Positions 1-64,000 of a stretch of 64,000 nucleotides of DNA are shown here, one piece after another (positions within the stretch are counted from its first letter, which is position 1; each line of letters begins with the position of its first letter). This DNA is from Bacteroidales bacterium (GTDB lineage: Bacteria > Bacteroidota > Bacteroidia > Bacteroidales > UBA4417). The position numbers and the translations under genes were made by a program. Where the stretch lies: assembly GCA_038212135.1 (NCBI GenBank), contig JBBQUX010000003.1:350-64349 (forward strand), in the 5' to 3' direction. The notes under the pieces are model-generated. The model had not been told where the DNA came from. It saw only the letters and a program-made list of their open reading frames with translations, and made no database searches.

Positions 1-2050
1 CGGGGCTGGCGGGGAAATTGATGTTTTGCGTGTTTCCATCGCCGAAATCCCAGTGGTAACGGGCAATAAACCCGGATGTTGTGCTGCTCATATCTGTGTA
101 AAGCACTATATTACCCTGGCAGGTCGGTGTGCTATAGCCGAAATTGGCATCCGGAACAGGCGAAATGATAATCGGTTTTGTACGGGTGTTGCTACAGCCT
201 GCGGTATCAGTCACCGTAAGGGTTACGGAATAGGTTCCCGGCGAAGTGTAGGTGTGTGTGGGAGCCTGTAAGTTGGAACTTCCTCCGTCGCCAAATGTCC
301 AGCTCCAGCTGGCGATTGCTCCGACCGTCATACCTGTTGGCGTAAACGAGGCCAGGTTGTTGGCGCAGGCACTTTGGGTATTGAAATCCACAACCGGTTT
401 GGATTTTATGGTAATGTTCCGGGTGATGGTATCCGAACAGCCGTTACCTGTAAAGGTGATCAGTTTCACAACATAGGTCCCGGCAGTTGCAAAATCATGG
501 GTCGGGTTTTTAAGGGTGCTGGTATTGCTGGTTCCGGAAGTCGGATCACCAAAATTCCAGTTCCAGTTGCTGAGGACTTGTGTGCCGCTGACCGTGGTCA
601 GATCTGTAAACTGGACTGATGTTCCGACGCACTGCCCGTTCATCATAAAATCGGAGGTCGGCACTCCCAGCATATTTACCAGCCTGCTTTCGGAATGGGT
701 ACAGCCTTCGTTGTTGGTTACCGTAAGGGAAACGCTGAAGGTTCCTGCTCCTATATACGTATGGCTAACATTTGGATTTGAAGGGAAAAGGATGGTCTGC
801 GTGTTTCCATCGCCAAAATTCCATTCCCATTTATTGATAAACCCTGTGCCTGAAGTACTCTGATTTGCAAAAGCAACAGCTTGCCCCTGGCAGTTATCGG
901 TATTGGCGGTAAAATGGGCCACCGGCGGCGGGTTCACGGTTACCGGAAGCGAAATGAATCCTTCGCAACCAGCCGTATCGGTAATGGTTAGCGTTACGGT
1001 GAAAGTGCCGGGTGCCAGGTAATTATGCGTTGTATTGCGGGTAAATGCAGTGGCTCCGTCGCCAAAATCCCAGGCATAAGTTGCCGTGGCATTGATATTG
1101 ATCAGCGTACTGTCGGCCAGGAAAAGGGTAGCGCTGTTCAGGCAGCCCGGCGTATTGAAAAAGTTGGCAAGCGGTGCTGCTTTTACGGTTATGGTCTTTT
1201 GAAGCGTGTCGCTGCAACCGTTCTGATTGGTAACAATTAGGGTTACGTTGAAATTGCCGGCAGTTGAATAAGTATGGGTAGGATTTTGCAAAAAGCTGGT
1301 ATTCAGCGACCCGGAAGTAGGTTCGCCAAAATTCCAGAGCCAGGAGGAGATTTGACCACCGAGGTTCTCGAGGGAGTTGTCGAGGAAAACAGCAGCCTGA
1401 TCCTGGCAACTGCTCCAGAGGGTGAAACTAGCCTGCGGACGGTTGAAAACCGTTACCACCGCCTGGTATTCCGACGTGCAACCCCGGCTGTTGTTCACCG
1501 TAAGGGTTACATTGTAATTTCCCTGTGCCGGGTACTGATGCGTTACATTCGGGCTGTTCGGGAAATTGATGGCATCGGCAGGTGTTCCGTCGCCAAAAGT
1601 CCATATCCATTGCTGCAGGTAACCCTGGCCCTGTGGATTGGTGCTCAGATCGGTAAACAGGGTGATATCATTCAGGCAATTAGGCGTATTAAAACTGAAA
1701 AAAGCTGTCGGATGCGGCAAAATCACCACCGGGTGTGTCACCGTATACTGACATCCGTTAGTATCCACCACGCTGAGTGTTACCGTATACGTGCCATAGG
1801 TAGTGTATACATGGCTTGGGTTGAACGGCGCATTGTAGGTGGCAAAAGTTCCGTCGCCAAAAGTCCAGTTCCAGGTGCTGATGCGTGGAAGGAAATTTCC
1901 GCTCAGCGTAAAATAAGTTGTATCGCTGGCGCATGCATTATTGGTGGTGAAATCGGTTACCGGCGTGGGATTCATCACCACATTAATGGTGTCGCGCATC
2001 ATGGCAAGGCAGTTGCCAATGGGATTTTGACCCTGAATTGAATATTGCCC
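1..2050 (-). repeat. Coding array of at least 8 PKD-domain modules (~240-265 nt spacing), C-terminal part of the giant gene
   Basis: W.W.FG[DE][GP] motifs are encoded at about 1860, 1595, 1330, 1065, 812, 555, 290 and 50 (e.g. WNWTFGDGT, WIWTFGDGT, YAWDFGDGA, WEWNFGDGN). Confidence 0.8.
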
Positions 2051-8000: not shown

Positions 8001-10390
8001 CACTGATAAACAGGATATGACCCCCCGTTTAATGGAAATGCAGTAAAATTCACAACTGATCCCTGGCAAACAGTTTCAGCACTGGCATTAATTGTAATTG
8101 CGGCAGCGAAGGATAAACTTACACTCATTATCAGGGAATTGGACGTAGCCGGATTACCTTGAATACAAGATTCTGAAGAAGTAAGAATGCATGTTACAAC
8201 ATCACCGTCATTGGGGTTATATGTGAATATTGAAGCATTGGTACCTGCATATAACCCATTAACCTGCCATTGATACGAAGAAGAACTTCCGGCATTTTCG
8301 GGCATTGCTGTGAAATTGACCGCAACGCCGTCGCAAATATTATTTTGGTCAGAAGTAATCTGAACACCAAGCGGTAATATTGGAAATACATCCATTAAAA
8401 CCGTATTTGAAATTGCGGGATTATTGCTTAAACATAAAAGATCCGATGTAAGCTCACAGCTAACAATATTTCCGTCCAAAGGAATGTAACTATATGTGGA
8501 TGAGTTAGTACCCACATCAGCCCCGTTAACTCTCCATTGCAAGTGTGGTGTTATGCCGGCATGAACTGTTGAAGCTGTGTAAGTTACAATAGTTCCGGTA
8601 CAAGCTGCATTTTGGTCTTCAGAAACGGATATGCTTGCGGGCAGCATGGGGTTCACCGACATGGTAACCACATTCGACATGGCGGGGTTACCAAGTGTAC
8701 ACTGATAATCAGAAGTAACCATACATGTTACTAAATCTCCTTCATTCGGTACATAAGTATAGGTAGGTGAATTTGTACCGGAAATTATATCGTTCACCGA
8801 CCACTGAAAAACGGGTGAAGTGCCTCCGTTAACTGTCGTACTATTAAAAGTAACAATTGATCCCAGGCAGATATTATTATCGTTTTCCGATATCAGGACA
8901 TTTACCGTTTGCCAGGGTATAACCGTCATTGCAATTGAATTTGAAACTGCGGGACTACCTGATACGCACAATGCATCTGAGGTTATGCAGCAAACAATTA
9001 AATCACCATCAAGTGGAATATATGAGAAGATTGCTGAATTTGTACCGGCATTCAAACCGTTAACTTTCCACTGGTATTGTGGGAAGCTTCCACAATTAAC
9101 TGTAGCTGCTGATAAAATAACTATAGTTCCATGGCAGGATGCGGTTTGAGATGCCGAAATAGAGACACTTACGGGCAGAATAGGGCTAACACTCATCACC
9201 AGTAGGTTCGAAACCGAAGGATTTCCTGTGGCACAAACCAAATCTGATGTAAGTAAACATGTAACCTCATCGCCATTAGCCGGTTGATAAGAAAAATATG
9301 GAGAGTTTAGACCTGTATTTACATTATTTACCCTCCACTGGATTATAGGGGAAATGCCACCGTTACCTGGCGTAGCTGTAAAATTAATTGTAACCCCACT
9401 ACAAACATTGTTCTGATCGGATGCAATCGCCACACCAGCCTGAAGTTGCGGATTTACTCCAATTGTAACTGTGTTTGATATTGCCGGGCTTCCGATTGAG
9501 CAAACGGCATTATTTGATGTCAGCACACAGCAAACCTTGTCGCCTTCAGCTGGAATATAGGCATATGATGGTAAATTTCCTCCGGCTGGTAACCCGTTCA
9601 CTTTCCATTGGTAAAACGGATAAGTTCCTTCGTTTACCGCAGTAGCAATTAGTATAACTTGTGATCCGGGGCAAACCGGGTTCGAAAGTGCTTCAATTGA
9701 AATACTTACAAGGCGTTCAGGCTCAACTTCAACCAGGGCCAATCCTGTTAAGTCAACCGGGTCCGCTGGCCCGCTGTCATCGCTGAGACTTGCAATAGTA
9801 TAAACGGTTGTCGCATCAGGGCTTACTGTTACTATTATTGTTGGGGCGTAACCCGAAAAAAGGGTTCCGTCACTCAGTGCACCGGAAATTAATCCTGTAC
9901 CTTCAACGTCCAGAAGAAGATCTGTGTTTTGCCCGCTGCAGATTGTTGTCGATCCGCTTAGTATACCGGAAAGTATTCCCTTGAGAATTGGAATAGTATT
10001 TTCTGGCAGGCTTGAAATTTCTTTGTCCGAAACCTTAGATTTTGAGTTCAGATATTCAGTGCTTTGGTTGGCGGGAATGAATTGATTCTGAAAATTCATT
10101 GCCAATTTATAAAGATCAATACCAAATCCTGACTTCCCTTTTTGCTCGCTCAGTGGTAGTTTGCTGCTTTGGCAGTCCTGCTCGTAAGCGGTTGTTAATA
10201 TGGAGAATAAATATGAATAATATATATTTTCGGGGTTGGTTTTGGAAGGAAAATCTGAAGAATTGATTTTACCCGGAAAATATTCTGCTTCTATGCCTGG
10301 TGTTGAATAAACAGACAAGAAGTTTCCTCCCTGTGATTCAAATGATACAAGGATAGTTAAAATACATAAAACCAGAGATTTAACAATCAT
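1..10390 (-). CDS. Giant secreted cell-surface/adhesin-like protein, 3'-truncated by the window edge (more than 3460 aa here). Order: signal peptide, ~225-aa unique N-region, 28 tandem 89-aa Cys-containing Ig/PKD-like modules, ~70-aa linker, at least 8 classical PKD domains
   Basis: My own minus-strand translation from ATG at 10390-10388 (MIVKSLVLCILTILVSF...) stays open to position 1, with an in-frame upstream stop at 10442-10444. It is absent from the ORF track, apparently because no stop lies inside the window; only short antisense or off-frame ORFs are listed there. Module consensus: C.G..V.F.A....GG..P.YQW.VNG...G.N...F.Y.P.NGD.V.C.LTS...C..GNPA.SN. The last 2 kb carries W.W.FGDG PKD signatures. 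Confidence 0.9.
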   Translation of the reverse strand, partial: MIVKSLVLCILTILVSFESQGGNFLSVYSTPGIEAEYFPGKINSSDFPSKTNPENIYYSYLFSILTTAYEQDCQSSKLPLSEQKGKSGFGIDLYKLAMNFQNQFIPANQSTEYLNSKSKVSDKEISSLPENTIPILKGILSGILSGSTTICSGQNTDLLLDVEGTGLISGALSDGTLFSGYAPTIIVTVSPDATTVYTIASLSDDSGPADPVDLTGLALVEVEPERLVSISIEALSNPVCPGSQVILIATAVNEGTYPFYQWKVNGLPAGGNLPSYAYIPAEGDKVCCVLTSNNAVCSIGSPAISNTVTIGVNPQLQAGVAIASDQNNVCSGVTINFTATPGNGGISPIIQWRVNNVNTGLNSPYFSYQPANGDEVTCLLTSDLVCATGNPSVSNLLVMSVSPILPVSVSISASQTASCHGTIVILSAATVNCGSFPQYQWKVNGLNAGTNSAIFSYIPLDGDLIVCCITSDALCVSGSPAVSNSIAMTVIPWQTVNVLISENDNNICLGSIVTFNSTTVNGGTSPVFQWSVNDIISGTNSPTYTYVPNEGDLVTCMVTSDYQCTLGNPAMSNVVTMSVNPMLPASISVSEDQNAACTGTIVTYTASTVHAGITPHLQWRVNGADVGTNSSTYSYIPLDGNIVSCELTSDLLCLSNNPAISNTVLMDVFPILPLGVQITSDQNNICDGVAVNFTAMPENAGSSSSYQWQVNGLYAGTNASIFTYNPNDGDVVTCILTSSESCIQGNPATSNSLIMSVSLSFAAAITINASAETVCQGSVVNFTAFPLNGGSYPVYQWQVNGCNHGTDQNTFSYTPANGDIVSCILYSSISCATGNPLNSNQLSIAVLPYDVPSVSIIASANPVCAGMSVLYTASTTNGGTNPAFQWKRNGIHVGTNSSTYTCVPVNGESITCSLKSDAPCLLYDTVLSNNMKMIVITLVPVSISISADQNDMCQGTTVNFFATPVNGGVLPSFQWKVNGIDVGTNSFLFSYIPLNGDLISCVLTSGITCVTDNPAVSNVISMAIFNSMPVSVTIVESSNNSCQGNIVNFSSTVVNGGTAPEFQWIVNGLNSGSNSPDFNYVPAYGDIVECRVTSNLSCANGVQATSNQVFMVVNDFMPVSISVSADQNTLCDGDTVHFVASSLNEGTDPAYQWIVNGANAGTDSPFFSYTPSNSDIVYCMLTSSILCATNNPASSNLINLTVNPSFAVSVSISASQVNVCQGTTVTYSATTVNGGIFPIYQWRVNGANTGTNAATFSYIPLNGDIITCEFTSDLTCTKFNPAISNIISMSVSNVLPVSVTITQNPATACSGVPVSYTAAPVNGGSSPVYQWFVNGSGTVSNSSNYLYIPVIGDQVSCVLTSGALCATGNPATSNTLNVNVNSFSPVSITITANHNNICGGTTVSYNALTVNCGSAPFYQWKVNGTNAGSNLATYSYMPVNGDKISCILTSSIACPISNPATSNEITMTVNTQLAASIIISADQNNICTGTTVNYTLTAVNGGDNPIYKWKVNGVNNGINSTTFTHIPSHGDIVSCEMVSDALCVSGSPATSNTILMLVSANLPAGVSISPDNSEICQSSSVTFTASPINCGSTPVYQWQVNGSTTGVNSASYCYVPANGDVVSCSMVSGLSCSTGNPAISNLVTITVNPVLAAGIAITSDLNNICPGIAVAYTATATNGGTTPIYQWKRNGINAGSNSPFFTCIPANNDIITCKMVSNALCVTGNPSLSNPLTMAVITPLPVSVSINTSQHTICSGNTASYTSAAVNGGSAPIYQWSINGLDSGTNSDVFTYIPSNGDVVNCMLISDITCTIGNPATSNSIGMTVNPILPVSVSITESNNSVCQGTFVDFTATPVNGGSIPVLSWFVNGTNTGTTSATYSYEPDNNDNVSCILTSNLACVSANQATSNTLMMSVLPISPVSIAISADQNPVCNGTIVNYSSAATNGGTAAVYQWKINGVNSGISLPVFSFAPSNNDLVTCTLTSSELCTINNPANSNDLLMYVNQLLPVSISIVADRNNFCQGTDANFTAFPVNGGINPIFQWKVNGINAGTNQNTFNYTPANNDIITCSLITDEYCTTGNLVTSNSIIMKVIGSHPVSISISADQITICEGISVNFSAIAANAGTSPVYQWSVNGIQSGTNSPIFSYIPANTDVVTCMVTANNALCTTGSPATSNTIVLSVIAVLPVGISINEDSNNLCQGATVSFTAVTSNCGNSPIYQWKVNGIGTGQNTDYFSFIPNNNDVISCILTSNASCISGNPALSDSITMAVNPILPVSIIISADQNTVCEGEMVNFTTTTLNEGNTPAYQWILNGTNVGNNTPVYSFIPNNGDQVRCSLVSDALCAVSNPATSNLITITTNPLLPVGILIAENQNTICQGNSATFTAISNNSGTSPEYQWFVNGSNAGSNSSTFSYIPSDSDIISCNLISNALCPSINPAISNSIQLTVYPLLPVGITIIEDENNVCEGTTVTLSSFIVNGGISPGYEWKVNGVSTGANAGTFSFIPVNDDVVTCNLSSDAGCATGNPATSNSISFNIKQPIPVSISISSIHDTICEGTVVTFAANIINGGTTPVFDWLVNGILVNNYLQYFTYTPQNGDQVSCHVISGLQCVSGNPAISNTIIMIVHPELPVSILIAEDKNYVCKGTNVTFTSIIANGGNSPVYEWRVNNQTLNYNQPVFSYIPLNGDIVSCVLTSNAICPSSNTVASNEIVMFSDTLIIYNTQSNSNGCFCEEDSGIAILLDGSQLGFNYILFRNGMNTGISLSGTGESLDFGLYNVPGQYSIQGQNPIGNCLAMMRDTINVVMNPTPVTDFTTNNACASDTTYFTLSGNFLPRISTWNWTFGDGTFATYNAPFNPSHVYTTYGTYTVTLSVVDTNGCQYTVTHPVVILPHPTAFFSFNTPNCLNDITLFTDLSTNPQGQGYLQQWIWTFGDGTPADAINFPNSPNVTHQYPAQGNYNVTLTVNNSRGCTSEYQAVVTVFNRPQASFTLWSSCQDQAAVFLDNSLENLGGQISSWLWNFGEPTSGSLNTSFLQNPTHTYSTAGNFNVTLIVTNQNGCSDTLQKTITVKAAPLANFFNTPGCLNSATLFLADSTLININATATYAWDFGDGATAFTRNTTHNYLAPGTFTVTLTITDTAGCEGFISLPVTVNPPPVAHFTANTDNCQGQAVAFANQSTSGTGFINKWEWNFGDGNTQTILFPSNPNVSHTYIGAGTFSVSLTVTNNEGCTHSESRLVNMLGVPTSDFMMNGQCVGTSVQFTDLTTVSGTQVLSNWNWNFGDPTSGTSNTSTLKNPTHDFATAGTYVVKLITFTGNGCSDTITRNITIKSKPVVDFNTQSACANNLASFTPTGMTVGAIASWSWTFGDGGSSNLQAPTHTYTSPGTYSVTLTVTDTAGCSNTRTKPIIISPVPDANFGYSTPTCQGNIVLYTDMSSTTSGFIARYHWDFGDGNTQNINFPASP
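2250..9715 (-). repeat. Coding tandem array: 28 modules of 267 nt (89 aa) inside the giant gene
   Basis: The codons for the YQW/FQW landmark (plus strand CCAYTG) recur at about 9605, 9335, 9068, 8801 ... 2926, 2659, 2390. Nearly every spacing is 267 nt, with two or three of ~270. The copies are diverged at DNA level. Confidence 0.85.
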
Positions 10391-10436
10391 TTTTAAGCTG
10401 TAGTCGGAATAAAGTTCGCGGGAGTTCTCTGTTTTA

Positions 10437-10444
10437 CAAATCTA
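10437..10444 (-). promoter_or_regulatory. Candidate Bacteroidota -7 box (TAgaTTTG) for the giant gene
   Basis: Plus strand CAAATCTA is TAGATTTG on the minus strand, ~47 nt upstream of the ATG at 10390. It matches the established TAnnTTTG consensus. Confidence 0.4.
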
Positions 10445-12325: not shown

Positions 12326-12386
12326 TGCACTTCGGCTTGTTTCGACTTCGTAAAACAACCATCGCTCAGTGCATTGAATCGTTATA

Positions 12387-12518
12387 ACCCTCCATACTCT
12401 CCAAACCCTTCAAACTCTCCAAACCCTTCAAACTCTTCAAACCCTTCAAACTCTCCAAACCCTCTAAACCCTCCAAACCCTTCAAACCCTTCAAACCGAA
12501 CCCCCAATCCCTGAAAAA
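12387..12518 (+). repeat. CTTCAAAC/CTCCAAAC nonamer tandem array (~14 units), nearly G-free, ending at the ATG of the next gene
   Basis: Read directly. I count only 2 G in ~130 nt. The array generates the spurious PSNSPNPSN and FEGFGEFEG ORFs in the track. Confidence 0.85.
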
Positions 12519-16599: not shown

Positions 16600-17115
16600 A
16601 TGAAATTTAGTCTTTTTCAGAAAGTATTAGCTTCAGTCAGCCTCGTTGTATTTGTTGTTTTATTAACAGGTTGTCCTTACTCGAGTAGCGTTCCGATTGA
16701 TGAAGGAACGGTTAAAATAGCAGCCGCTCTCGAGGGACAATGGTTGAGTTCACAGGATTTGGAATCAGAAAATCCAACTTATTATATTATTTCTAAAGAA
16801 AATAAGTTTCGCGCTAGTGCAAAAAAAATGGAATTTTCATCATCCGATAGTGCGTACAATGAAACCATTTATCACCTCACTTTTTCAGATGTAAATGGTG
16901 ATATCTTTATGAACGCTATCGAAGATGGTGGTACAACTTATAATTTGTATAAATTTAACTTCGATGAAAAAGCTGTTGAAATAAATACTTCCGAAGTCAC
17001 TGATTATATTAAGGAAACCTTCAGTACATCAAAAGAGTTAAATGATTTTATTGCCAAAAATAAGTCGAACAGCTATTTCTTTACCAATACAAACGAAACA
17101 TACGTTCGTAAATAA
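16600..17115 (+). CDS. Lipoprotein, function unknown
   Basis: Signal peptide with lipobox LLTGC. Confidence 0.75.
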   Translation: MKFSLFQKVLASVSLVVFVVLLTGCPYSSSVPIDEGTVKIAAALEGQWLSSQDLESENPTYYIISKENKFRASAKKMEFSSSDSAYNETIYHLTFSDVNGDIFMNAIEDGGTTYNLYKFNFDEKAVEINTSEVTDYIKETFSTSKELNDFIAKNKSNSYFFTNTNETYVRK

Positions 17116-17156
17116 AGGAACAAAACTCAAAGCAGGATTAATCTGCATTTTTAAAA

Positions 17157-17277
17157 CCCAAGTCTCAAATTCCAAATTTCAAGTCCCGGGAAGGATAAGG
17201 AAATAATAATGTGAAGATCAAAAGAAATGATGTCTTGAAATTTGGGTCTTGAAATTTGGGACTTGACATTTCAAATC
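17157..17277. repeat. Inverted arms built from 14-nt (2x7) GTCTTGAAATTTGG units between convergent genes
   Basis: The left arm cccaagtctcaaattccaaatttcaagtccc (17157-17187) is approximately the reverse complement of the right arm gtcttgaaatttgg gtcttgaaatttgg gacttgacatttca (17232-17277). Confidence 0.75.
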
Positions 17278-17307: not shown

Positions 17308-18120
17308 TTAAAGATTGCTGATCACTTCCTTAAAAAGCCGGATAAGCTTGATTTCAGCTTTCCCGGCTGTTTCGAGTATATCCTCAAGCCTTGCCGGAAC
17401 CAGGTTATCCGGGTCGCACAAATCAGTAATTACCGATACTGCAGCGCAAGGTAAGCCCATATGATTCGCAACAATTACTTCGGGTACTGTCGACATTCCT
17501 ACAACATCAGAACCAATCATGCCAAGGTAGCGGTATTCGGCACGGGTTTCGAGGTTAGGACCGGGAACAACGGCATAAACTCCCTTGTGCAGCGTTATGT
17601 TAAGCCTGGCTGCAGCTGATTCCATTTTTTTGTTTATAACAATTGAATATGGGCAACTCATGTCCGGGAAACGCGGTCCAAGTTCGTTAATATTTGTGCC
17701 GGTCAGCGGATTTTCAGGCAGCAGATTAATGTGATCGTCGAGCAACATCAAATCGCCTTTTTCGTAGCTTTTATTAATTGCTCCGGCAGCATTCGAAAGG
17801 AGTAACCACTTAACGCCCAATAGTTTCATTACCCTTATCGGCAAAGTTACCTGCTGAAGCGAATACCCTTCGTAAATATGAAACCGACCCTGCATGGCAA
17901 GTACTTTATGTCCTTCCAGATTTCCATAGATTAACCTTCCGCGATGTGATTCAACGGTAGATACCGGGAAATGAGGTATATCGGCATAATCGATTGCAAC
18001 TTCAATATCAATTTCCGAAACCAGTCTCCCCAAGCCGGTTCCTAAAACGATTCCTGTATCAGGAGAAGTAATACCTTTGCTTTGTAGAAAAGCTGCGACT
18101 TCTTTGATTATTTCAAACAT
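17308..18120 (-). CDS. Purine nucleoside phosphorylase (PNP family, inosine/guanosine type)
   Basis: GIVLGTGLG...HFP.STV.SH.G.L..G...G..V..MQGRFH.YEGY and the VGMSTVPE motif. Confidence 0.9.
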   Translation of the reverse strand: MFEIIKEVAAFLQSKGITSPDTGIVLGTGLGRLVSEIDIEVAIDYADIPHFPVSTVESHRGRLIYGNLEGHKVLAMQGRFHIYEGYSLQQVTLPIRVMKLLGVKWLLLSNAAGAINKSYEKGDLMLLDDHINLLPENPLTGTNINELGPRFPDMSCPYSIVINKKMESAAARLNITLHKGVYAVVPGPNLETRAEYRYLGMIGSDVVGMSTVPEVIVANHMGLPCAAVSVITDLCDPDNLVPARLEDILETAGKAEIKLIRLFKEVISNL

Positions 18121-20374: not shown

Positions 20375-21460
20375 CTATCGTTTGTCAGCCCAATTGCTCA
20401 CTATCACCGGAAACTCATTTTCAAAATTCGGGGTAAACACTCCTTTCCCCAGATTTTCCCTGATTTCGCCAATCGTCCAGAAACGACCGTCTTCAATTTC
20501 CATTTTATTAAAAACCGGTGTGGCGTTATACAATGCCATAAAGCTGAAAACCAGTTCCGATTCAACTGCTGATTCCCATTTGTATTTTGCCAATGGAACA
20601 GGATGAATACCTGTTATATTCAGTTCTTCAGCCGTTTCACGGAGCAGAGCCTGTTCAATGGTTTCTCCCAGATCGACATGTCCGCCAACGGCTGAATCCC
20701 ATTTCCCAGGTTCAACATCTTTGTGCAATGCTCGTTTCTGAAGGTAAATTTCACCTTTACTGTTGAAAATTTGTAAGTGTACAACCGGATGAAGTTTTCC
20801 TGGTCCGCTGTGGACTTCCTTGCGTGTTGCTTTCCCGATTATTTTACCTTCTTCATCCACAAGGGGAACCCATTCATCAGCAGGATGTACAGTGGATTTT
20901 ACTTTTCGTTTAGATGTAAGGTATTGCCATGCGAAATACAGCCCGAAAAGTATATAGAGTAATCCGCCGCTGATAAATGCCCATGCTTCCTTGCTCATGA
21001 AATATGCCGAATAAATGATCAGTAAAGTATAACCCAGCATCATCCAGAATAAAATGCGCATAGTTTCCTGCATGGCTTTTTCTGCTCCGGCAGGCATCTT
21101 CATATCACCCATATAGCGTTGGGTATAAATCATCATCAGGTTTTTACTGCTAAAAGCTGAATAACCAAGTATGCCGCATAATAGCAGGTTGATTAGTGCA
21201 GGCTTTAGCTTAAAGAATATCTCATCTTTCAGCGCAAGTGAGATTCCTCCCAATGCAACCAGCAAAGCAGTGTCAAAAAGCACAAATCTGTCAAGACGAC
21301 GCTCGCGGACAAAAACATATATTAGTTGAACCACTCCGAATATAACAGCAACTACAAGCCCAGCCTCCGTTGACCAGAAAAAATCAACAAGAATAAATAC
21401 AAAGATTGGCAGTAATCCTGGCAGTATCTTTTTGAAAAGGTTTAGCTGGCTGGTATCCAT
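20375..21460 (-). CDS. Fusion protein: N-terminal polytopic IspZ/YciB-like membrane domain plus C-terminal NUDIX hydrolase
   Basis: About 190 aa of hydrophobic helices, then the Nudix box GGHVDLGETIEQALLRETAEELNI. Confidence 0.85.
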   Translation of the reverse strand: MDTSQLNLFKKILPGLLPIFVFILVDFFWSTEAGLVVAVIFGVVQLIYVFVRERRLDRFVLFDTALLVALGGISLALKDEIFFKLKPALINLLLCGILGYSAFSSKNLMMIYTQRYMGDMKMPAGAEKAMQETMRILFWMMLGYTLLIIYSAYFMSKEAWAFISGGLLYILFGLYFAWQYLTSKRKVKSTVHPADEWVPLVDEEGKIIGKATRKEVHSGPGKLHPVVHLQIFNSKGEIYLQKRALHKDVEPGKWDSAVGGHVDLGETIEQALLRETAEELNITGIHPVPLAKYKWESAVESELVFSFMALYNATPVFNKMEIEDGRFWTIGEIRENLGKGVFTPNFENEFPVIVSNWADKR

Positions 21461-21582
21461 AATCTTTAAATTTCGTATGTATGATGTCGGATGTTAAATT
21501 TTGGAGAAAAAAAATTATTGAATCACTAATTGCAACCCCCGAATCACAAATCGGATTTCTCTTTTCACTAGCCTCACTAAAC

Positions 21583-24824: not shown

Positions 24825-24953
24825 TGATATTCAATTGATTAAAATTTGAATTGCATTCTGCTCAGTATAATGTGTGTATATTCGAAACAATAATAGTACA
24901 ATCTTTCCTTCGGATGAAGAAAATAAAATTGACATTGCATTTTATTTTTCACT

Positions 24954-24961
24954 TATATTTG
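24954..24961 (+). promoter_or_regulatory. Candidate -7 box (TAtaTTTG) only 5 nt before the ATG, implying a leaderless or near-leaderless transcript
   Basis: TATATTTG at 24954-24961; ATG at 24966. Confidence 0.35.
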
Positions 24962-24965
24962 TGTC

Positions 24966-26234: not shown

Positions 26235-26389
26235 AGGTTTGATGAGATTGAAGAGATTGATGGGATTTAAGAGATTGATGGGATTGAAAGGAAGCCAGAG
26301 AACATTAACGATTACTTCGGTACAGTGCCCCGTAAACTGAAACTTGAATCCAGAAACTCTTTTAATATCAATACTCTCAAACTAAAATA
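26235..26389 (+). repeat. Composite intergenic element: purine-rich AGATTGAWG array (26235-26291), ~40-nt core, G-poor CTGAAAC/CTCAAAC-like array (26334-26389) ending at the start codon
   Basis: Read directly. The left units are approximately the reverse complement of the CTTCAAAC family. Confidence 0.7.
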
Positions 26390-29922: not shown

Positions 29923-30032
29923 AAGAATAAGAATTAAAGATAAGGTTAAGGTTAAGGTTAAGGTTAGGGGTGAGGTTAAGTGTGAGGGGAGACCTCAATC
30001 TGAATCTAAACCTAAGTTAATTGAGATTGAAG
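29923..30032 (+). repeat. C-free AGGTTA-type hexamer array (29923-29990) followed by a short G-poor inverted segment
   Basis: aagaat aagaatt aaagat aaggtt aaggtt aaggtt aaggtt aggggtg aggtta agtgtg agggga. I count no C in ~68 nt. It is followed by gacctcaatctgaatctaaacctaag...gagattgaagg. Confidence 0.75.
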
Positions 30033-44589: not shown

Positions 44590-44794
44590 GACGGAAGTCA
44601 GGAGGCTGGAGTCGGAAGTTCCCTTGATGACTTCTATTTTCTCATTAAAGTTGAGCTTGATTAGCTAATTCCATGTCTTCGAATCGTTATCGTAAAAGTA
44701 ATGTTAAATTTCAAATCAGAACCGTTCTTCTGTCTTCGGTCTTCCGTCTTCGGTCTTCCGTCTTCGGTCTTTCGTCTTCTAACTTCCGTCTTCC
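44590..44794. repeat. Inverted arrays of GTCTTCS heptamers flanking a ~100-nt core in a 410-nt intergenic gap
   Basis: Right arm 44724-44794: gtcttcg gtcttcc gtcttcg gtcttcc gtcttcg gtctttc gtcttct aacttcc gtcttcc. Left arm 44590-44623, in the opposite orientation: gacggaag tcaggag gctggag tcggaag. Confidence 0.8.
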
Positions 44795-44874: not shown

Positions 44875-45882
44875 TTACTGCAGTTCAGTTATTGCTTCCT
44901 TCATTAATATGGCTTTGTCAACAGGCACAACACCTGATTTTTCGCATACCAGTCCACCAGCTATATTTGATAAGGTCGCTAAAATGGCAGGACCGGTTTT
45001 TGATGCAAGGCAAAGCGCAGCCATGCTAATAACGGTATCTCCCGCGCCCGAAACATCTGCAATACTGCGCATCAAAGCCGGAATGATTTTTGTTTCGGCC
45101 CCGTCCGGATTTTTTGAGCTGATAAAAATGCCGTGTTCGGATAATGTGATCAATACTATATTTATATCTTGAGTGGTATGCAGTAATTCTGCAGCATTCC
45201 TGAGGCTTTCAACTGATAGGGGATCAATATTAAGATTTAAGCCTTCACTGATTTCTTTCAGATTGGGTTTAAAAAGAGTTATCCCTGTATAGCAATCAAA
45301 ATTATTCTTCTTGGGATCAACAGCAACAGGGATTTTTCCAGCAGAAGCCATCAAAGATATTTTCCCGATTACTTCGGCTGACAGCACTCCTTTATTATAA
45401 TCCTGAATAATGATAACATCAGGTTTGTACGAAACCAGAAGTTGCGAAATAGAATTTATGAAGTCAGCAGTGTCCCTGGTATTTAAATCGATGTCAATTT
45501 CTTCGTCAACGCGGAGCATTTGCATGCGATTGCCGATGATACGGAATTTCGAAGTGGTGATCCTTTCCTTGCTGCGAATGATTCCTTTAGTTGTAAGACC
45601 TTCTTTCTTCATCAATTCAAGCAGAACATCACCTTGTTTATCGTTGCCAATAACGGAGCATAAAACAGCATTGGCACCCAATGCCTTTAGGTTGAGAGCT
45701 ACATTTGCAGCACCTCCCAGCAAATTATTTCTTTGTTTAAGGGCAACCACAGGAACCGGAGCCTCCGGCGAAATGCGATCTACCTTACCTATCAGGTACG
45801 AATCGACCATCACATCCCCGATTACAAGCACCCTGCAAGTATTGAAACTACTGAACAGTTGCCTGATCTCTTGTTCTGACAT
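44875..45882 (-). CDS. PfkB-family sugar kinase, D-glycero-beta-D-manno-heptose-7-phosphate kinase (RfaE/HldE domain I)-like
   Basis: VLVIGDVMVDSYL.G.V.RISPEAPVPVV and DVSGAGDTV motifs. Confidence 0.88.
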   Translation of the reverse strand: MSEQEIRQLFSSFNTCRVLVIGDVMVDSYLIGKVDRISPEAPVPVVALKQRNNLLGGAANVALNLKALGANAVLCSVIGNDKQGDVLLELMKKEGLTTKGIIRSKERITTSKFRIIGNRMQMLRVDEEIDIDLNTRDTADFINSISQLLVSYKPDVIIIQDYNKGVLSAEVIGKISLMASAGKIPVAVDPKKNNFDCYTGITLFKPNLKEISEGLNLNIDPLSVESLRNAAELLHTTQDINIVLITLSEHGIFISSKNPDGAETKIIPALMRSIADVSGAGDTVISMAALCLASKTGPAILATLSNIAGGLVCEKSGVVPVDKAILMKEAITELQ

Positions 45883-51820: not shown

Positions 51821-51875
51821 GGGAGAGGGGCAGAGGGGAGAAAAGAGAAAAGAGAAAAGAGAAAAGGCAAGGGGC
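51821..51875 (+). repeat. ~55-nt polypurine tract containing 4 x GAGAAAA heptamers
   Basis: gggagaggggcagaggggagaaaagagaaaagagaaaagagaaaaggcaaggggcgaa. Almost exclusively A/G on the plus strand. Confidence 0.8.
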
Positions 51876-53299: not shown

Positions 53300-53372
53300 A
53301 CCCTGCCCGAAACTCTCCAGACCCGAAACTCTTTAAACCCTTCAAACCCTTCAAACCATTCAAACTCTTCAA
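53300..53372 (+). repeat. CTTCAAAC-family array ending at the ATG of the flavin reductase gene
   Basis: ...cccgaaact ctccagac ccgaaact ctttaaac ccttcaaac ccttcaaac cattcaaa ctcttcaa-ATG. I count no G in the last ~45 nt. Confidence 0.8.
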
Positions 53373-58139: not shown

Positions 58140-58186
58140 GCGGGATTTGTAATCCCGCTGCAAAGAGTACCGGATTTTAAATCCGG
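58140..58186 (+). terminator. Two adjacent related hairpins downstream of the LUD gene
   Basis: GCGGGATT-tgt-AATCCCGC (58140-58158) and CCGGATTT-t-AAATCCGG (58170-58186). Confidence 0.45.
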
Positions 58187-58331
58187 ATTATCAAACAAAA
58201 TATTCTTCTTTTAAGTCGGCAACCTCATCTTTTTTAGCAATAATTTCGCAAGTTTGCTTAACGTTTTAAGTTATAAACGTAAAAATCGTATTAAATTTTC
58301 TAAAAACTTGCAATTCATTCATATGCTTTCA

Positions 58332-59804: not shown

Positions 59805-60260
59805 ATGGATTTGAAAGAGATTTTATCAGTTTCGGGCAAGCCCGGGCTTTTTAAAACAATCGCACAGACTAAAACGGGCGTAATCATCGAATCGCTTACG
59901 GATGGAAAGCGCCTGCAAGCTTTTGCAAGCGATAAAATCAGCTCTCTGGGTGAAATAAGTATTTTTACTGCAGATGAGGATTTACCCTTACGGGAAGTTT
60001 TCAGGATCATACAGGAGAAAAACGGCGATCAACCCGTTCCTGATCCTAAAACCAATGACACCGCATTAAAAGCATTTTTCGAGACAATTTTGCCTGATTA
60101 CGATCGTGAGCGTGTATATGTTTCGCACATGCGTAAACTGGTTCAATGGTATAACCTGTTGATTGCAAACGGGATAACAGATTTTTCAGCTCCTGCCGAA
60201 GAAGCCGGAGCCGACGCAGCTTCTCCGGGCGAAACAGAACCCGAAACCGAAGACAAATAA
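59805..60260 (+). CDS. DUF5606-like protein with acidic C-terminal tail
   Basis: MDLKEILSVSGKPGLFK......G.I.ESL.DGKR matches my memory of this conserved Bacteroidota family. Confidence 0.75.
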   Translation: MDLKEILSVSGKPGLFKTIAQTKTGVIIESLTDGKRLQAFASDKISSLGEISIFTADEDLPLREVFRIIQEKNGDQPVPDPKTNDTALKAFFETILPDYDRERVYVSHMRKLVQWYNLLIANGITDFSAPAEEAGADAASPGETEPETEDK

Positions 60261-60265
60261 TTCTA

Positions 60266-60297
60266 AGTCCGTCGTATCACATGGCGGACTTTTTTTA
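60266..60297 (+). terminator. Intrinsic terminator
   Basis: AGTCCGTC-gtatcacat-GGCGGACT followed by TTTTTTT. Confidence 0.65.
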
Positions 60298-60311
60298 AGT
60301 ATTTTCGCCAG

Positions 60312-60319
60312 TATATTTG
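60312..60319 (+). promoter_or_regulatory. Candidate -7 box (TAtaTTTG) 8 nt before the pyrK ATG (near-leaderless)
   Basis: TATATTTG at 60312-60319; ATG at 60327. Confidence 0.35.
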
Positions 60320-60326
60320 CTACCTG

Positions 60327-61097
60327 ATGAAGAAATTTATTCATGACTTTACGGTTACCCGCAATCATCATATTACGGACGACTACTTTGCCTTATATTT
60401 GAAATGTCCGGTCATTCTGCCCTCAATTTTTCCCGGTCAGTTTGCCGAAGTGCTTGTAAGTAACTCAACCACAACATACCTTCGCAGACCCTTTTCGATT
60501 TACGATACTGATTACGAAACAAATGAACTTTCGCTGCTTATCAAAAAAGTGGGTGATGGTACCGCTGCACTCATGAAACTTAAGGAAGGTGATATCCTGA
60601 ACCTGGTTTATCCTTTAGGCAACACGTTTAGTATGCCTGATGGCGAAAAAGCTTTGCTTGTTGGAGGTGGAGTGGGTATTGCCCCGATGCTGCTTTTGGC
60701 AAAACGTTTGAGAATTGAAGGCTTCAAACCTGATGTGCTTATCGGTGGACGAAGTTCGAACGATATTGTTGAACCTGAAAAATATAAACCTTTTGGTGAA
60801 GTGTTTATTACAACCGATGATGGTTCAGCAGGTGAAAAAGGAATGGTGACGCAGCACTCAGTTTTTTCAGGAAAAGTAAAAGAATACTCGGCTATTTATG
60901 CCTGCGGACCTGACCCAATGATGAAAGCCGTTGCAAGGATTGCAGCAGAGTACGATATCCCGTGCGAGATTTCGCTCGAAAATACCATGGCCTGCGGAAT
61001 CGGTGCTTGCTTATGCTGTGTGGTCGAAACAGTTGACGGTAATAAAACCACATGCATTGAAGGGCCGGTTTTTGACACAAGAAAACTTAAATTGTGA
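60327..61097 (+). CDS. pyrK: Dihydroorotate dehydrogenase (class 1B) electron-transfer subunit
   Basis: FAD/NAD-binding RPFSI and GGGVGIAP motifs, and the C-terminal 2Fe-2S cysteines C.GIGAC..C. Confidence 0.9.
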   Translation: MKKFIHDFTVTRNHHITDDYFALYLKCPVILPSIFPGQFAEVLVSNSTTTYLRRPFSIYDTDYETNELSLLIKKVGDGTAALMKLKEGDILNLVYPLGNTFSMPDGEKALLVGGGVGIAPMLLLAKRLRIEGFKPDVLIGGRSSNDIVEPEKYKPFGEVFITTDDGSAGEKGMVTQHSVFSGKVKEYSAIYACGPDPMMKAVARIAAEYDIPCEISLENTMACGIGACLCCVVETVDGNKTTCIEGPVFDTRKLKL

Positions 61098-61103
61098 TTT
61101 TTT

Positions 61104-61131
61104 TGCAAAGTGAAAAATGCAAAGTGAAAAA
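61104..61131 (+). repeat. Perfect tandem duplication of a 14-mer (TGCAAAGTGAAAAA x2)
   Basis: Read directly, 7 nt after the pyrK stop. Confidence 0.85.
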
Positions 61132-61217
61132 TCTGATTAAAATCAATATTGTCAGGCTGGGCGATACCAGAAGAATGAATTTGTGATGTGTTTGAATAGT
61201 TCCAAATGTAACATTAA

Positions 61218-61373
61218 ATCCGACATCCGACATCCGTAATCCACAATCCGCAATCCACAATCCACAATCCGACATCCACAATCCACAATCCACTATCCAC
61301 AATCCACAATCCGCAATCAGACATCCACAATTCGCAATCCGACATCCGCAATCCACAATCCGACATCCGAATC
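61218..61373 (+). repeat. About 22 tandem ATCCRMA heptamers (atccgac/atccaca/atccgca) between pyrK and pyrD
   Basis: Read directly. The array generates the spurious DCGLW-repeat ORF 61087..61356 on the minus strand. Confidence 0.9.
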
Positions 61374-61386
61374 AAAAAAAATAACA

Positions 61387-62298
61387 ATGCCCGAATTATC
61401 AGTTAACGTTCATAAGCTTTTGCTAAAAAACCCGGTTATGTCAGCCTCGGGAACATTTGGCTACGGATCTGAATTCGACGATTTTATCGATGTTAACAGG
61501 CTTGGAGGAATACTTACCAAAGCCTGTACTTCGAAAAACCGTGATGGAAACCGGTATCCGCGTATGGCCGAAACTCCGGCCGGAATGCTGAATTCTGTAG
61601 GGTTGCAAAACAAAGGTGTTGATTATTTTATCGAAACCATTTACCCTAAAATAATGCATTATGATACGCATATTATGGTAAATGTGTCCGATTCAACGGT
61701 TGAAGGCTACATGGAAGTAGCAGAGAAACTAAATCAGCTCGAGAAAATTACCGGTATTGAACTCAATATATCATGCCCCAATGTGAAAGAAGGAGGGATG
61801 GCTTTCGGTACATCCTGCCCTATGGCTGCTGCTGTTACTAAAGCGGTTCGGGAAGTGTATGATAAAACAATGATTGTGAAACTTTCGCCCAATGTAACCA
61901 ATATCGCTGAAATAGCTAAAGCGGTTGAAGATGAAGGTGCTGATTCAGTTTCAGTTATAAATACTTTACTCGGGATGGCAATTGATGCCGAAAAGCGCCG
62001 CCCGATTCTTTCGACCATTACCGGTGGACTTTCAGGCCCTGCTATAAAACCAATTGCGTTGCGCATGGTATGGCAGGTTTCAAAAGCTGTTAAAATACCG
62101 GTTATCGGTTTAGGAGGAATAAGCAATGCGACCGATGCGATCGAATTTCTACTTGCAGGTGCAACCGCTATCCAGGTTGGAACAGCTAACTTCGTTGATC
62201 CACAGGTATGTATCAAAATTCTTGATGGTATAGAGGAATACTGCAACCGGCATGGAATTAAAGATGTAAATGAATTGATTGGTGCACTGGATTGCTGA
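61387..62298 (+). CDS. pyrD: Dihydroorotate dehydrogenase, class 1B catalytic subunit
   Basis: [31 protein letters not shown]. Confidence 0.95.
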
Positions 62299-62406
62299 AA
62301 AGGGGAAAGTTTAAAATGCAAAATTCTAAGGTTAAAACAGTAAAAGTAGTTTTTCGATTTCCATAGTGCCAACCGAATGCCAACCCAATGACAAACTAAC
62401 CATTTC

Positions 62407-62746
62407 ACAATCCTCAAAATCCTCAACCCTTCAAACTCTGAAACTCTTCAAACTCTTCAACCCCTTCAAACCCTTCAAACTCTGAAACCCTTCAAACTCT
62501 TCAAACCCTTCAAACTCTTCAAACCCTTCAAACCCTTCAAACTCTTCAAACCCTTCAAACTCTTCAAACTCTTCAAACTCTTCAAACCCTTCAAACTCTT
62601 CAAACTCTTCAAACCCTTCAAACCCTTCAAACTCTTCAACCCCTTCAAACTCTTCAAACCCTTCAAACTCTTCAAACCTTCAAACCCTTCAAAACCTTCA
62701 AAACCTTCAAACTCTTCAAACTCTTCAACCCCTTCAAACCCTTCAA
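62407..62746 (+). repeat. About 37 tandem CTTCAAAC[C/T] nonamers, ~340 nt, nearly G-free, ending at the purD ATG
   Basis: Read directly. Two unit types (CCCTTCAAA and CTCTTCAAA) are intermixed. I count only 2 G. The array generates the spurious LKSLKG ORF 62475..62675. Confidence 0.92.
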
Positions 62747-64000
62747 ATGACCAAATCCAACATCCTTCTCATAGGCAATGGTGGCCGCGAACATGCCATA
62801 GCCTGGAAACTTGCACAGAGCCCTTTACTTAACCAGTTATTTATTGCTCCGGGGAATGCAGGTACTTCTTTGGTAGGAACCAATGTGCCAGTAAATGGAA
62901 ATGATTTTGAGAGTATAAAAAGCTTTGTGGTTACTAATCGGATTGATATGGTGGTTGTAGGGCCCGAAGAGCCTTTGGTAAAGGGGATTCATGATTTTTT
63001 TTTAGCGGATAATGCCTTGAAGAATATTCCGGTTATCGGTCCTCAAAAAGCGGGTGCTGAACTTGAAGGTAGCAAGGATTTTGCCAAGCAGTTTATGATC
63101 AGGCATAATATTCCCACGGCTGCTTACAGCACTTTTACAATTGAAACTTTAACAGATGGTATTGCATTTATAAAAACACTCAATCCACCCTATGTGCTTA
63201 AAGCGGATGGACTTGCTGCCGGAAAAGGTGTAATAATCTGTAAAACTCTTGCGGAAGCTGAAAAAGAACTGACCGATATGCTTGTTGGCCAAAAATTCGG
63301 CAACGCTTCGGCAATGGTTGTAATTGAGGAGTTTCTTGATGGTATCGAACTGTCAGCATTTGCTATCACCAACGGAAAAGAATACCTGGTTTTGCCCGAA
63401 GCAAAAGATTACAAACGTATTGGCGAAGGCGATACGGGTCCGAATACAGGAGGGATGGGCTCAGTTTCCCCTGTTCCATTTGCTGACAGAGAATTTATGC
63501 AAAAAGTCGAAGACAGAATTATCAGGCCAACTGTTAAAGGGTTGCAGAAAGACGGAATACCCTACCAGGGATTTTTGTTTTTCGGATTAATGAATATAAA
63601 AGGAGATCCGTTTGTTATTGAATATAATGTTCGGTTGGGTGATCCTGAAACTGAATCCGTTTTACCTCGTATTAACAATGATCTGATTGAAATTTTTCAG
63701 GCTACTGCAAATGGAAACCTCTCTGCAATAAAACTGGAAACCGACGAACGCACTGCTGCCTGTGTGATGATCGTTTCAGGTGGATACCCTGGTAATTATG
63801 TTAAGGGGAAAGAAATTTCAGGAATAAAGGAGGTTACTAAAAGCCATATTTTTCACGCCGGTACAGTGACTGAAAACAATAAAACTGTATCTTCGGGAGG
63901 TAGAGTACTTGCAGTTACATCGCTGGCTTCTGATTTAAAAACTGCAGTAAATCAATCGAATGAATCTGCTTTATTATTGAATTTCGAGGGTTCGTATTTT
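62747..64000 (+). CDS. purD: Phosphoribosylamine-glycine ligase, 3' end cut by the window
   Basis: My translation from the ATG at 62747: MTKSNILLIGNGGREHAIAWKLAQSPLL...FIAPGNAGT...VVGPE.PLV.GI. Absent from the ORF track because no stop lies inside the window. Confidence 0.93.
   Translation, partial: MTKSNILLIGNGGREHAIAWKLAQSPLLNQLFIAPGNAGTSLVGTNVPVNGNDFESIKSFVVTNRIDMVVVGPEEPLVKGIHDFFLADNALKNIPVIGPQKAGAELEGSKDFAKQFMIRHNIPTAAYSTFTIETLTDGIAFIKTLNPPYVLKADGLAAGKGVIICKTLAEAEKELTDMLVGQKFGNASAMVVIEEFLDGIELSAFAITNGKEYLVLPEAKDYKRIGEGDTGPNTGGMGSVSPVPFADREFMQKVEDRIIRPTVKGLQKDGIPYQGFLFFGLMNIKGDPFVIEYNVRLGDPETESVLPRINNDLIEIFQATANGNLSAIKLETDERTAACVMIVSGGYPGNYVKGKEISGIKEVTKSHIFHAGTVTENNKTVSSGGRVLAVTSLASDLKTAVNQSNESALLLNFEGSYF

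Follow-up and report, generated by a model that had tools for sequence, protein, structure and literature searches.

A 22-unit heptamer array between pyrK and pyrD in a Bacteroidales genome, and the strand polarity of intergenic short-unit arrays among its relatives

Arrays of short tandem units in intergenic DNA have been known for decades from cyanobacteria, as the STRR repeats, and since 2007-2015 from other bacteria, with no established function. Mazel et al. reportedly gave the STRR consensus units in 1990 as CCCCAGT, TTGGTCA and CAACAGT. In Calothrix, 'three tandemly repetitive heptanucleotides' were described (PMC4692102). Rehm et al. (2015) reported heptameric G-rich intergenic repeats in Xanthomonas (GGGAATC) and Nostoc (GGGGA[C/T]T), about 90% of them intergenic and mostly between co-oriented open reading frames (ORFs); in the 50 bp upstream of an ORF their G-rich strand is non-coding, and in the 50 bp that follow a stop codon, overlap with the stop included, it is coding (PMC4692102). 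In Beggiatoaceae, cyanobacteria and five Bacteroidetes, MacGregor (2015) found direct repeats of the heptamer TAACTGA that are forward-oriented and lie immediately before start codons, with up to 43 copies in some Bacteroidetes and other heptamers alongside. Those regions hold no Shine-Dalgarno sequences and no predicted RNA structure, one repeat set of Flexibacter is reversed and lies just past a stop codon, and close relatives of the carriers have shorter repeat-free spacers (PMC4679880). As summarised in the same paper, the long simple-sequence repeats (LSSR) of Mrazek (2007) are tandem units of 1-11 nt that run longer than chance, heptamers being the most abundant class; LSSR-rich genomes are phylogenetically scattered, and polymerase slippage was proposed as their origin (via PMC4679880). 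In this work, we analysed a 64,000-nt stretch of a Bacteroidales bacterium (contig JBBQUX010000003.1, hereafter the window; GC content 40.9%), in which pyrK and pyrD, the genes for the two subunits of a class 1B dihydroorotate dehydrogenase (DHODH), are separated by a spacer that carries an array of ATCCRMA heptamers.

A first-pass annotation, made from the letters of the window, had described this spacer as a 289-nt repeat-filled interval with a 14-mer duplication, about 22 heptamers and an A-rich run, and both Tandem Repeats Finder (TRF) and direct reading bore the description out (Table 1). TRF reports TGCAAAGTGAAAAA in 2.1 copies at 61104-61132 with 100% matches. The heptamers stand in perfect 7-nt register and comprise nine ATCCACA, five ATCCGAC, three ATCCGCA and five single variants; the composition of the array is A55 C63 G12 T26, and the dinucleotide TG is absent. 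The 22 units are followed by TCAAAAAAAATAACA and then by the pyrD ATG, which lies 13-15 nt from the end of the array. A two-unit pattern (ATCCRMAATCCRMA, up to one mismatch) has 17 matches in the window against 0.66 expected (largest shuffle 4), 16 of them inside the array. With its head-to-tail units within the range of 1-11 nt, more frequent than composition predicts, the array qualifies as an LSSR and is the same in kind as those described in 2007. To our knowledge, Lentimicrobiaceae, the family of the window and of its closest relatives, were not among the genomes available in that year. The ORF called pyrK here (60327-61097) has DHODH electron-transfer subunit models as best matches, but under the NCBIfam curated cut-offs.

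With the Xanthomonas and Nostoc repeats, this array and its counterparts share tandem heptamers, an intergenic position, a strand polarity, large variation among close relatives and the absence of a link to surface or virulence genes; the C-rich strands are also similar, i.e. AATCCCC there against AATCCAC and AATCCGC in the window lineage. They differ in that the window lineage, which belongs to Bacteroidales, mixes periods of 7, 8, 9 and 11 nt, in that an ancestrally overlapping gene pair is split, and in that the CC and CCC runs of the units are unsuited to a G-quadruplex or i-motif. Both of these structures were rejected, the C runs being too short or too far apart: ATCCRMA holds at most CC, and in a second array, made of nonamers and placed before purD, CCC runs alternate with CTC, leaving loops of about 15 nt, whereas a G-quadruplex needs runs of at least 3 G with short loops. 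The TAACTGA arrays resemble that of the window in being forward, intergenic direct repeats of a heptamer a few nucleotides from a start codon. Their unit, however, has no G/C skew, unlike ATCCACA, ATCCGAC and ATCCGCA, and the window lineage has many coexisting unit families, none of them dominant. As for the STRR repeats, phylum and consensus are different, and no unit of the window equals any of the STRR consensus units named above. The comparison with STRR repeats drawn in the first-pass annotation is apt at the level of the class, i.e. tandem intergenic heptamers: AATCCRC differs by one or two bases from A[A/G]TCCCC, a strand of STRR1, and the nearest cyanobacterial match to AATCCAC is AATCCCC, the complement of Nostoc GGGGATT, from which AATCCGC is also one base away (PMC4692102). 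The annotation's remark that such heptamers had not been described in Bacteroidota is outdated by the five Bacteroidetes of MacGregor (2015) (PMC4679880). Our literature search found no paper linking Lentimicrobium with tandem repeats. The array of the window departs from the published families only in unit sequence and in the G-quadruplex criterion; polar heptamer arrays are already published elsewhere, and it is the lineage that is new here.

Relatives were collected by a PyrD scan with one genome per species (80 loci) and by a metagenome scan (80 more, 66 of them non-redundant). The best PyrD matches were found in metagenome-assembled genomes of Lentimicrobiaceae and other Bacteroidales, the closest (L001) with 98% identity. 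At PyrD identities below 72%, pyrK and pyrD overlapped or abutted (spacer of 0 nt or less) in 29 of 36 loci, with overlaps of 7-13 nt, and between 72 and 75.5% they did so in 27 of 53, in agreement with the earlier statement that the two genes are normally adjacent or overlapping. At 90% identity or more no overlap was found, and the spacer measured 40-669 nt (median 131). The overlap is thus present in the outgroups and never in the close clade, which marks the split as a derived and lineage-specific state; the spacing in relatives was a check that the first-pass annotation had proposed. Motifs with ATC in a 7-nt phase stand in the 45 nt that precede the pyrD ATG in 27 of the 33 non-redundant genomes of the close clade (typical units AAATCCG, CAATCCA, CATCCGA and AAATCGC), against 0/25 and 0/82 in the more distant groups and 5/261 before other genes of the same genomes. 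This tract has 2 to about 12 copies in close-clade relatives against 22 in the window, whose array is therefore the largest expansion of an ancestral tract. A long spacer shared by relatives and free of repeats had been named as a case that would speak against a role of the repeats; the relatives' spacers vary widely instead, and most of them hold a heptamer tract.

Length turnover of these spacers is fast. The coding DNA of the window and of L001 is 92-94% identical, and BLAST similarity between them ends at 61079 and returns at 61370; likewise, the array before purD has 36 copies in the window and about 6, 8 and 12 in L001, L025 and L088, respectively. Since the repeats confused the MAFFT alignment of the spacers, homology of the backbone with L012, L013 and L088 was judged by reading the sequences: the non-repeated ...TCAATATTGTCAGGCTGGGCGATACC... 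is closer to those three than to L001, and TTAAAATCAATATTGTCAGGCTGGGCGATACC of the middle segment is, by eye, like the backbone ...TTAAATCAATTnTCAnTCAGGCTGAGCGAAGTCGAAGCC... of L008, L012, L013, L081 and L088.

The pyrD array is one of many. Over all sampled loci, we found 13.3, 17.5 and 8.3 arrays per 100 kb in the close, middle and far groups, with periods ranking 7 > 8 > 9 > 11. With the longest ATG ORFs of at least 100 aa as (crude) gene calls, the arrays are mainly intergenic (96/104, against a crude coding fraction of 0.77; 43/51 in a replication set); those that precede start codons tend to be poor in G, and those that follow stop codons poor in C. In co-directional spacers, the counts of arrays G-rich/C-rich on the sense strand are 18/8 near the stop and 2/24 near the start (p = 8e-6); the de-duplicated metagenome loci give 9/0 and 2/5 (p = 0.005). 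Assigning arrays of any spacer to the nearest gene end gives 46/24 for stops (p = 0.012) and 17/48 for starts (p = 1.5e-4), and every array found less than about 30 nt from a start codon (18 of 18) is C-rich on the sense strand. One unit family can follow the tendency in both orientations, as in L085, where TCGGATG occupies the stop-proximal half of the pyrK-pyrD spacer; likewise, the C-free array at 26239 of the window has a C-rich counterpart upstream of purD in L025. Background composition goes in the same direction, more weakly (C 0.19 and G 0.12 at -1 to -20; C 0.15 and G 0.18 after stops), and some stop-proximal arrays overlap the local stop-codon sequence (e.g. TGAAAAG in L023).

At the RNA level, the arrays before pyrD and purD are predicted to be almost free of structure. 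The whole pyrK-pyrD spacer has a minimum free energy (MFE) of -30.6 kcal/mol against -43.3 +/- 4.5 for shuffles, i.e. weaker than 100 of 100 (z = +2.84). Taken over 165 nt (the final 150 nt of the leader and 15 coding nt), the MFE is -1.9 kcal/mol for pyrD and 0.0 kcal/mol for purD, i.e. -0.012 and 0.000 per nt, against -0.172 +/- 0.055 (range -0.321 to -0.073) for the leaders of 32 window genes that lack arrays. No ATG, GTG or TTG occurs from 61206 to the pyrD ATG or from 62388 to the purD ATG. A structured RNA or riboswitch was rejected, the folding z-score being positive and Rfam offering nothing relevant: no match at gathering score in the window, and under permissive settings over 60900-62900 a single chance match below threshold, which falls within the coding sequence of pyrD. 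Pairing of a G-rich stop-proximal with a C-rich start-proximal array, as a means of translational coupling, was discarded, as the units are mostly non-complementary by inspection (L007, L023) and the whole pyrK-pyrD spacer of the window folds less stably than shuffles. Nucleotide-sensing attenuation specific to pyr genes was likewise discarded, purD and unrelated genes being preceded by the same arrays. Coding potential of the arrays was rejected too, the opposite-strand ORFs 61087-61356 and 62475-62675 having no family match. The purD nonamer array is open in frame with purD on the + strand; no N-terminal extension of purD is possible, because the in-frame stretch from the last stop to the ATG lacks any NTG. 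Relatives have 8-mers where the window has nonamers.

The signals around the operon point to a single transcript. The gene upstream of pyrK ends in an intrinsic-terminator-like hairpin, and TATATTTG at 60312, likely the promoter of a pyrK-pyrD-purD transcript to judge from its fit to the Bacteroidota -7 motif TAnnTTTG, is the only intergenic match to that motif on the + strand of 60200-63000; the other, at 60394, falls inside pyrK. Neither the pyrK-pyrD nor the pyrD-purD spacer holds an exact TAnnTTTG on the + strand or an intrinsic terminator. An ordinary promoter within the spacer, with the repeats irrelevant, had been the other outcome considered against the first-pass reading, and the + strand of the spacer holds no exact -7 motif. 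In the close clade, sense matches to TAnnTTTG are most frequent at 20-30 nt ahead of start codons (72 of 134). The motif is found in 16/61 co-directional spacers with arrays, against 190/294 of those without (odds ratio 0.19); where a spacer has both, the motif lies downstream of the array in 23 cases and upstream in 4. pyrK, pyrD and purD would then form one transcript, and the arrays would be intercistronic RNA.

On balance, we consider it probable that the arrays are tolerated, possibly helpful, unstructured leaders with no specificity of sequence. The pyrK-pyrD spacer would be RNA-coding intercistronic DNA of a co-directional pyrK-pyrD-purD unit, whose ancestrally overlapping junction would first have opened and then been filled by simple-sequence expansion. 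A short tract of the AAATCCG or CAATCCA type already stood just upstream of pyrD in the ancestor of the genus-level Lentimicrobiaceae clade, and the 22-unit array may have grown from it by replication slippage, an origin that would fit the perfect register, the unit variants and the arrays apparently seeded on stop-codon sequence such as TGAAAAG in L023. Arrays of 7-11 nt, filtered by selection on the mRNA, would survive preferentially when G-poor on the sense strand before starts and C-poor after stops, a G-poor array being presumably the safest product of slippage ahead of a start codon. Their likely effect on translation would be passive: the array would give pyrD a long leader that has no structure and no start codons, suits ribosomes independent of Shine-Dalgarno pairing and may serve as a standby runway for the 30S subunit, and unit sequence and copy number would be nearly neutral. 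Initiation regions of Bacteroidetes are A-rich, weakly structured, depleted in extra AUGs and devoid of Shine-Dalgarno pairing (PMC6847099), and unstructured 5' tails can act via ribosome standby (PMC5934652). Standby sites and A-rich leaders, as outlined in these two sources, resemble the arrays in having long, G-poor, single-stranded RNA (here predicted) 5' of the start with no competing AUG; the likeness is a functional analogy only. The window lineage adds a widespread uncultured Bacteroidales family dense in arrays (some 13-18 per 100 kb over the loci sampled), an evolutionary series in which the overlapping operon of a two-subunit enzyme is opened and its junction filled, and a polarity shared with other phyla in organisms that lack Shine-Dalgarno-guided initiation; together, these make the hypothesis of unstructured leaders and standby testable in Flavobacterium johnsoniae or Bacteroides.

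Several observations weigh against this reading. Many of the sampled loci are orthologous, so the p-values given above overstate independence; without the pyr/pur spacers and with identical units collapsed, the G-rich/C-rich counts become 19/11 at stops and 11/20 at starts (p = 0.04), and the polarity can be called a tendency but not a rule, because orthologous pyr/pur spacers supply much of the signal. Start-proximal arrays have ATG densities of 16.0 (sense) and 17.4 (antisense) per kb; avoidance of start codons was accordingly rejected as the cause of polarity and cannot be its general driver, the sense density being no lower than the antisense one. Nor does avoidance of structure alone explain the C-poor arrays after stops, as a C-free array is equally unstructured. 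Two promoter-like motifs with one mismatch occur in the middle segment of the pyrK-pyrD spacer (61133-61217), i.e. TGAATTTG at 61176 and TGTGTTTG at 61187. No conspecific strain that could show copy-number polymorphism was found: the exact PyrD is not on record, and the best metagenome matches are at most 97% identical. Finally, units recur at unrelated loci, even to an 18-nt alternation of CCC and CTC, which may point to a target recognised by its sequence, or to units being copied between loci.

This recurrence favours the proposal, which we hold unlikely, that the arrays are sequence-specific mRNA or DNA sites for a single-strand-binding protein (bS1, or one with a cold-shock domain or an RNA recognition motif) and define a post-transcriptional regulon. 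A small set of units recurs across unrelated loci and genera (AAACYCTTC at three loci of the window, CTGAAAC, TTGAAC and ATCC heptamers), the arrays adjoin start codons, and the tract before pyrD is kept in most of the close clade (27/33), and MacGregor made the same proposal for the TAACTGA repeats (PMC4679880). However, orthologous starts are preceded by unrelated units (ATCCGAC, AACCCATC, TAACCACCGAA, TTGAACCC and TAACTCC), it is composition and not sequence that the arrays have in common, and copy numbers from 2 to 36 show no visible constraint. Slightly less probable again is a related reading, in which the polar arrays would serve as runways devoid of G and of structure, to which bS1 or a dedicated protein that binds single-stranded RNA would attach; initiation at internal cistrons would then be independent and replace the coupling that the pyrK/pyrD overlap gives in other bacteria, and the recurrence of AATCC-type units (AATCCCC in Nostoc, GATTCCC in Xanthomonas, AATCCRC here) would reflect a shared target and not a slippage bias. 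A further reading takes the C-rich, G-poor arrays as Rho-loading (rut-like) sites that would attenuate transcription between cistrons and so set pyrD and purD levels, or couple transcription to downstream initiation. A classical rut site is at least 70-80 nt of C-rich, G-poor, unstructured and untranslated RNA. The composition of the arrays falls within this description (40% C and 8% G over 156 nt, with the MFE of -1.9 kcal/mol over 165 nt, for the heptamers; 39% C and 0.6% G over 322 nt, with an MFE of about 0, for the nonamers), they lie in what would be untranslated intercistronic RNA where intrinsic terminators are absent, and C-poor sequence after stops would fit avoidance of premature Rho loading. 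Yet attenuation between pyrK and pyrD has no obvious benefit, because PyrK and PyrD are subunits of one enzyme; the genes behind arrays are functionally unrelated, and to have the best Rho site immediately ahead of an internal cistron is at odds with the idea of avoidance; we find this reading quite improbable.

Other alternatives concern the origin of the repeats. The block might be a small mobile or recombining intergenic cassette and not a product of slippage in situ: the whole spacer is swapped between the window and L001 despite their similar flanks, the backbone of the window is like that of the more distant L012, L013 and L088 and unlike that of L001, a 155-nt insert with GGGAYTT heptamers in L001 falls precisely within a palindrome that the window has uninterrupted, and in L008 a whole ORF is inserted between pyrK and pyrD. 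The heptamer tract nevertheless abuts the pyrD ATG at the same place in 27 of 33 genomes, terminal inverted repeats and target duplications are absent around the array, the variant units keep the 7-nt register perfectly, as local expansion would have it, and two middle modules of the purD spacer are confined to that locus; on these grounds, we regard a cassette as a poor candidate. A contingency locus, in which changes of copy number would switch pyrD expression by phase variation, is highly improbable. Copy number does differ strongly between species, but the genes are housekeeping ones, the position is intercistronic, no exact + strand promoter motif exists whose spacing the array could change, a 7-nt period outside the reading frame cannot shift the frame, and Rehm et al. 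were also negative for the Xanthomonas and Nostoc heptamers (PMC4692102). That the array is an artefact of a metagenome assembly is scarcely credible. Short-read assemblers can mis-size tandem repeats, and the related contigs L005, L013 and L092 end at or near these spacers; the same families, however, stand at the same positions in dozens of independent assemblies, and eight unit variants are mixed irregularly in the array, which is not a collapsed perfect repeat, leaving error possible in the exact copy number only. Such arrays do have practical consequences, as they break assemblies and create spurious opposite-strand ORFs (LKSLKG..., MDCGCRI...).

In the window itself, TRF found nine arrays (period 5-12, three copies or more), against 0-1 (about 0.1) in each of 20 block-wise dinucleotide shuffles and none in 50 kb of E. 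coli K-12. The first-pass annotation had also proposed that the heptamer family is dispersed, on the basis of a 12-mer (gatgtcggatgt) at 21483-21494, which stands in sense orientation ahead of the minus-strand gene 20375-21460, at 23 nt from its ATG. Of the 12-mers in the array, four recur elsewhere in the window, where shuffles give 1.1 and three of 30 shuffles attain four; the count is within chance, and the copy was rejected as evidence of a dispersed family. Within the 64 kb, matches to the heptamer outside the array are at chance level only. Other units are dispersed, i.e. the nonamer AAACYCTTC, found at three loci of the window with one related array in reverse orientation (26239-26288), and ATCC-type heptamer arrays stand at other loci of the relatives L039, L040, L041 and L072.

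Table 1. Position and strand of the genes, signals and arrays discussed, in window coordinates.
Feature	Position	Strand	Remarks
Intrinsic-terminator-like hairpin and T-run ending the upstream gene	60265..60300	+	11-pair stem 60265-60291, then TTTTTAAGTA
TATATTTG, exact Bacteroidota -7 motif TAnnTTTG	60312..60319	+	7 nt before pyrK ATG
pyrK-like gene (DHODH electron-transfer subunit)	60327..61097	+	profile match
pyrK-pyrD spacer	61098..61386	+	289 nt
14-mer TGCAAAGTGAAAAA, perfect tandem duplication	61104..61131	+	stop-proximal, purine-rich, C-poor
Non-repeated middle segment of pyrK-pyrD spacer	61133..61217	+	
Array of 22 ATCCRMA heptamers	61218..61373	+	in register 61218-61371
A-rich run CAAAAAAAATAACA	61374..61386	+	directly before pyrD ATG; like Bacteroidota translation-initiation regions
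pyrD, class 1B dihydroorotate dehydrogenase catalytic subunit	61387..62298	+	NF005574, 438 bits, cut-off 269
pyrD-purD spacer	62299..62746	+	448 nt; purine-rich C-poor stretch, 11-mer vestige, nonamer array
11-mer vestige TGCCAACCCAA x2.5	62367..62394	+	in pyrD-purD spacer
Nonamer array AAACYCTTC, ~36 copies	62425..62746	+	into purD ATG (62747); TRF
Nonamer family AAACYCTTC, AACCCTTCA/AACTCTCCA x12.4	12386..12497	+	ends 21 nt before ATG at 12519
Nonamer family AAACYCTTC	53306..53372	+	directly into ATG at 53373
TTGAAGAGA/TTGATGGGA x5.6	26239..26288	+	C-free; begins 4 nt past stop codon at 26234
TAAGGT x6.7	29941..29989	+	C-free; 77 nt past stop codon
Heptamers, sense reading CCGAAGA/CGGAAGA, x9.9	44726..44794	-	G-rich; 80 nt past stop of gene 44875-45882
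GAGAAAA x4.1	51838..51866	+	C-free; 48 nt past stop codon

Beyond what the first-pass annotation had reported, we observed the strand polarity of the arrays and the larger nonamer array before purD (62425-62746), which exceeds the pyrD array in copy number and has only 2 G in 322 nt (39% C, 0.6% G). Across species, the pyrD-purD spacer keeps an ordered series of modules with very variable copy numbers: purine-rich 7-mers at the stop codon, ACGACTGC 8-mers, CCGAATGACCA 11-mers and units abutting the ATG (CTGAAAC, CTTCAAACC or TTGAACCC). The two middle modules are restricted to this locus and the ATG-abutting units are dispersed. Arrays of the 11-nt unit CCGAATGACCA occur in the spacers of L004, L007, L009, L012, L022, L024 and L081, and the vestige at 62367-62394 is their counterpart in the window; each array holds an ATG followed three codons on by an in-frame TGA, and the period is near one turn of the DNA helix.

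Further observations concern starts and ends of transcripts. An exact TAnnTTTG ends 5-7 nt before the ATGs of pyrK (60312-60326) and of the gene at 24966 (24950-24965), which suggests, from motif spacing, leaderless or near-leaderless mRNAs for both; for most other genes the motif stands at a distance of 20-30 nt. An exact -7 motif on the - strand, TACATTTG at 61203-61210 in the pyrK-pyrD spacer, is directed back into pyrK; it could mark an antisense start or have arisen by chance. A 14-mer (GTCTTGAAATTTGG, 2.9 copies) and its inverted counterpart occupy 17141-17276, in the gap between the convergent genes 16600-17115 (+) and 17308-18120 (-), with arms of 28-43 nt that are 72-84% complementary; this region may be a bidirectional terminator made of repeat units. 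Its motif AAGTCTCAAATTCCAAAT is also found in L001, within an insert of about 155 nt (2725-2881) that carries seven GGGAYTT heptamers and is absent at 58166-58190 of the window. The insert splits the palindrome CCGGATTT-T-AAATCCGG, intact in the window; at this hairpin, a segment that bears an array is present in one genome and absent from the other. At the start of the window, an apparent ORF-free stretch of 7.5 kb (3147-10441) was ruled out, as it lies inside a minus-strand ORF of more than 2,480 codons (<1 to 10441) that extends beyond the window start.

Spacers of the relatives hold other elements. In L008, the 669-nt pyrK-pyrD spacer (5332-6000) contains a complete small ORF starting MKKTFIIFIFGLTLGNAFG... 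(signal-peptide-like), and the junction therefore accepts gene insertions too. An element of about 40 nt, ...CTCAGTGCCTCCGTGGTTTAAA(W)A..., has no Rfam match and recurs in the pyrK-pyrD spacers of L004, L006, L011, L022, L081, L084 and L001; in L022 it is present twice, as part of a direct repeat of about 100 nt. About 5 kb downstream of pyrD, flavin mononucleotide (FMN) riboswitches (RF00050, 111-115 bits) were detected in L006 (11501-11620) and L012 (11760-11879).

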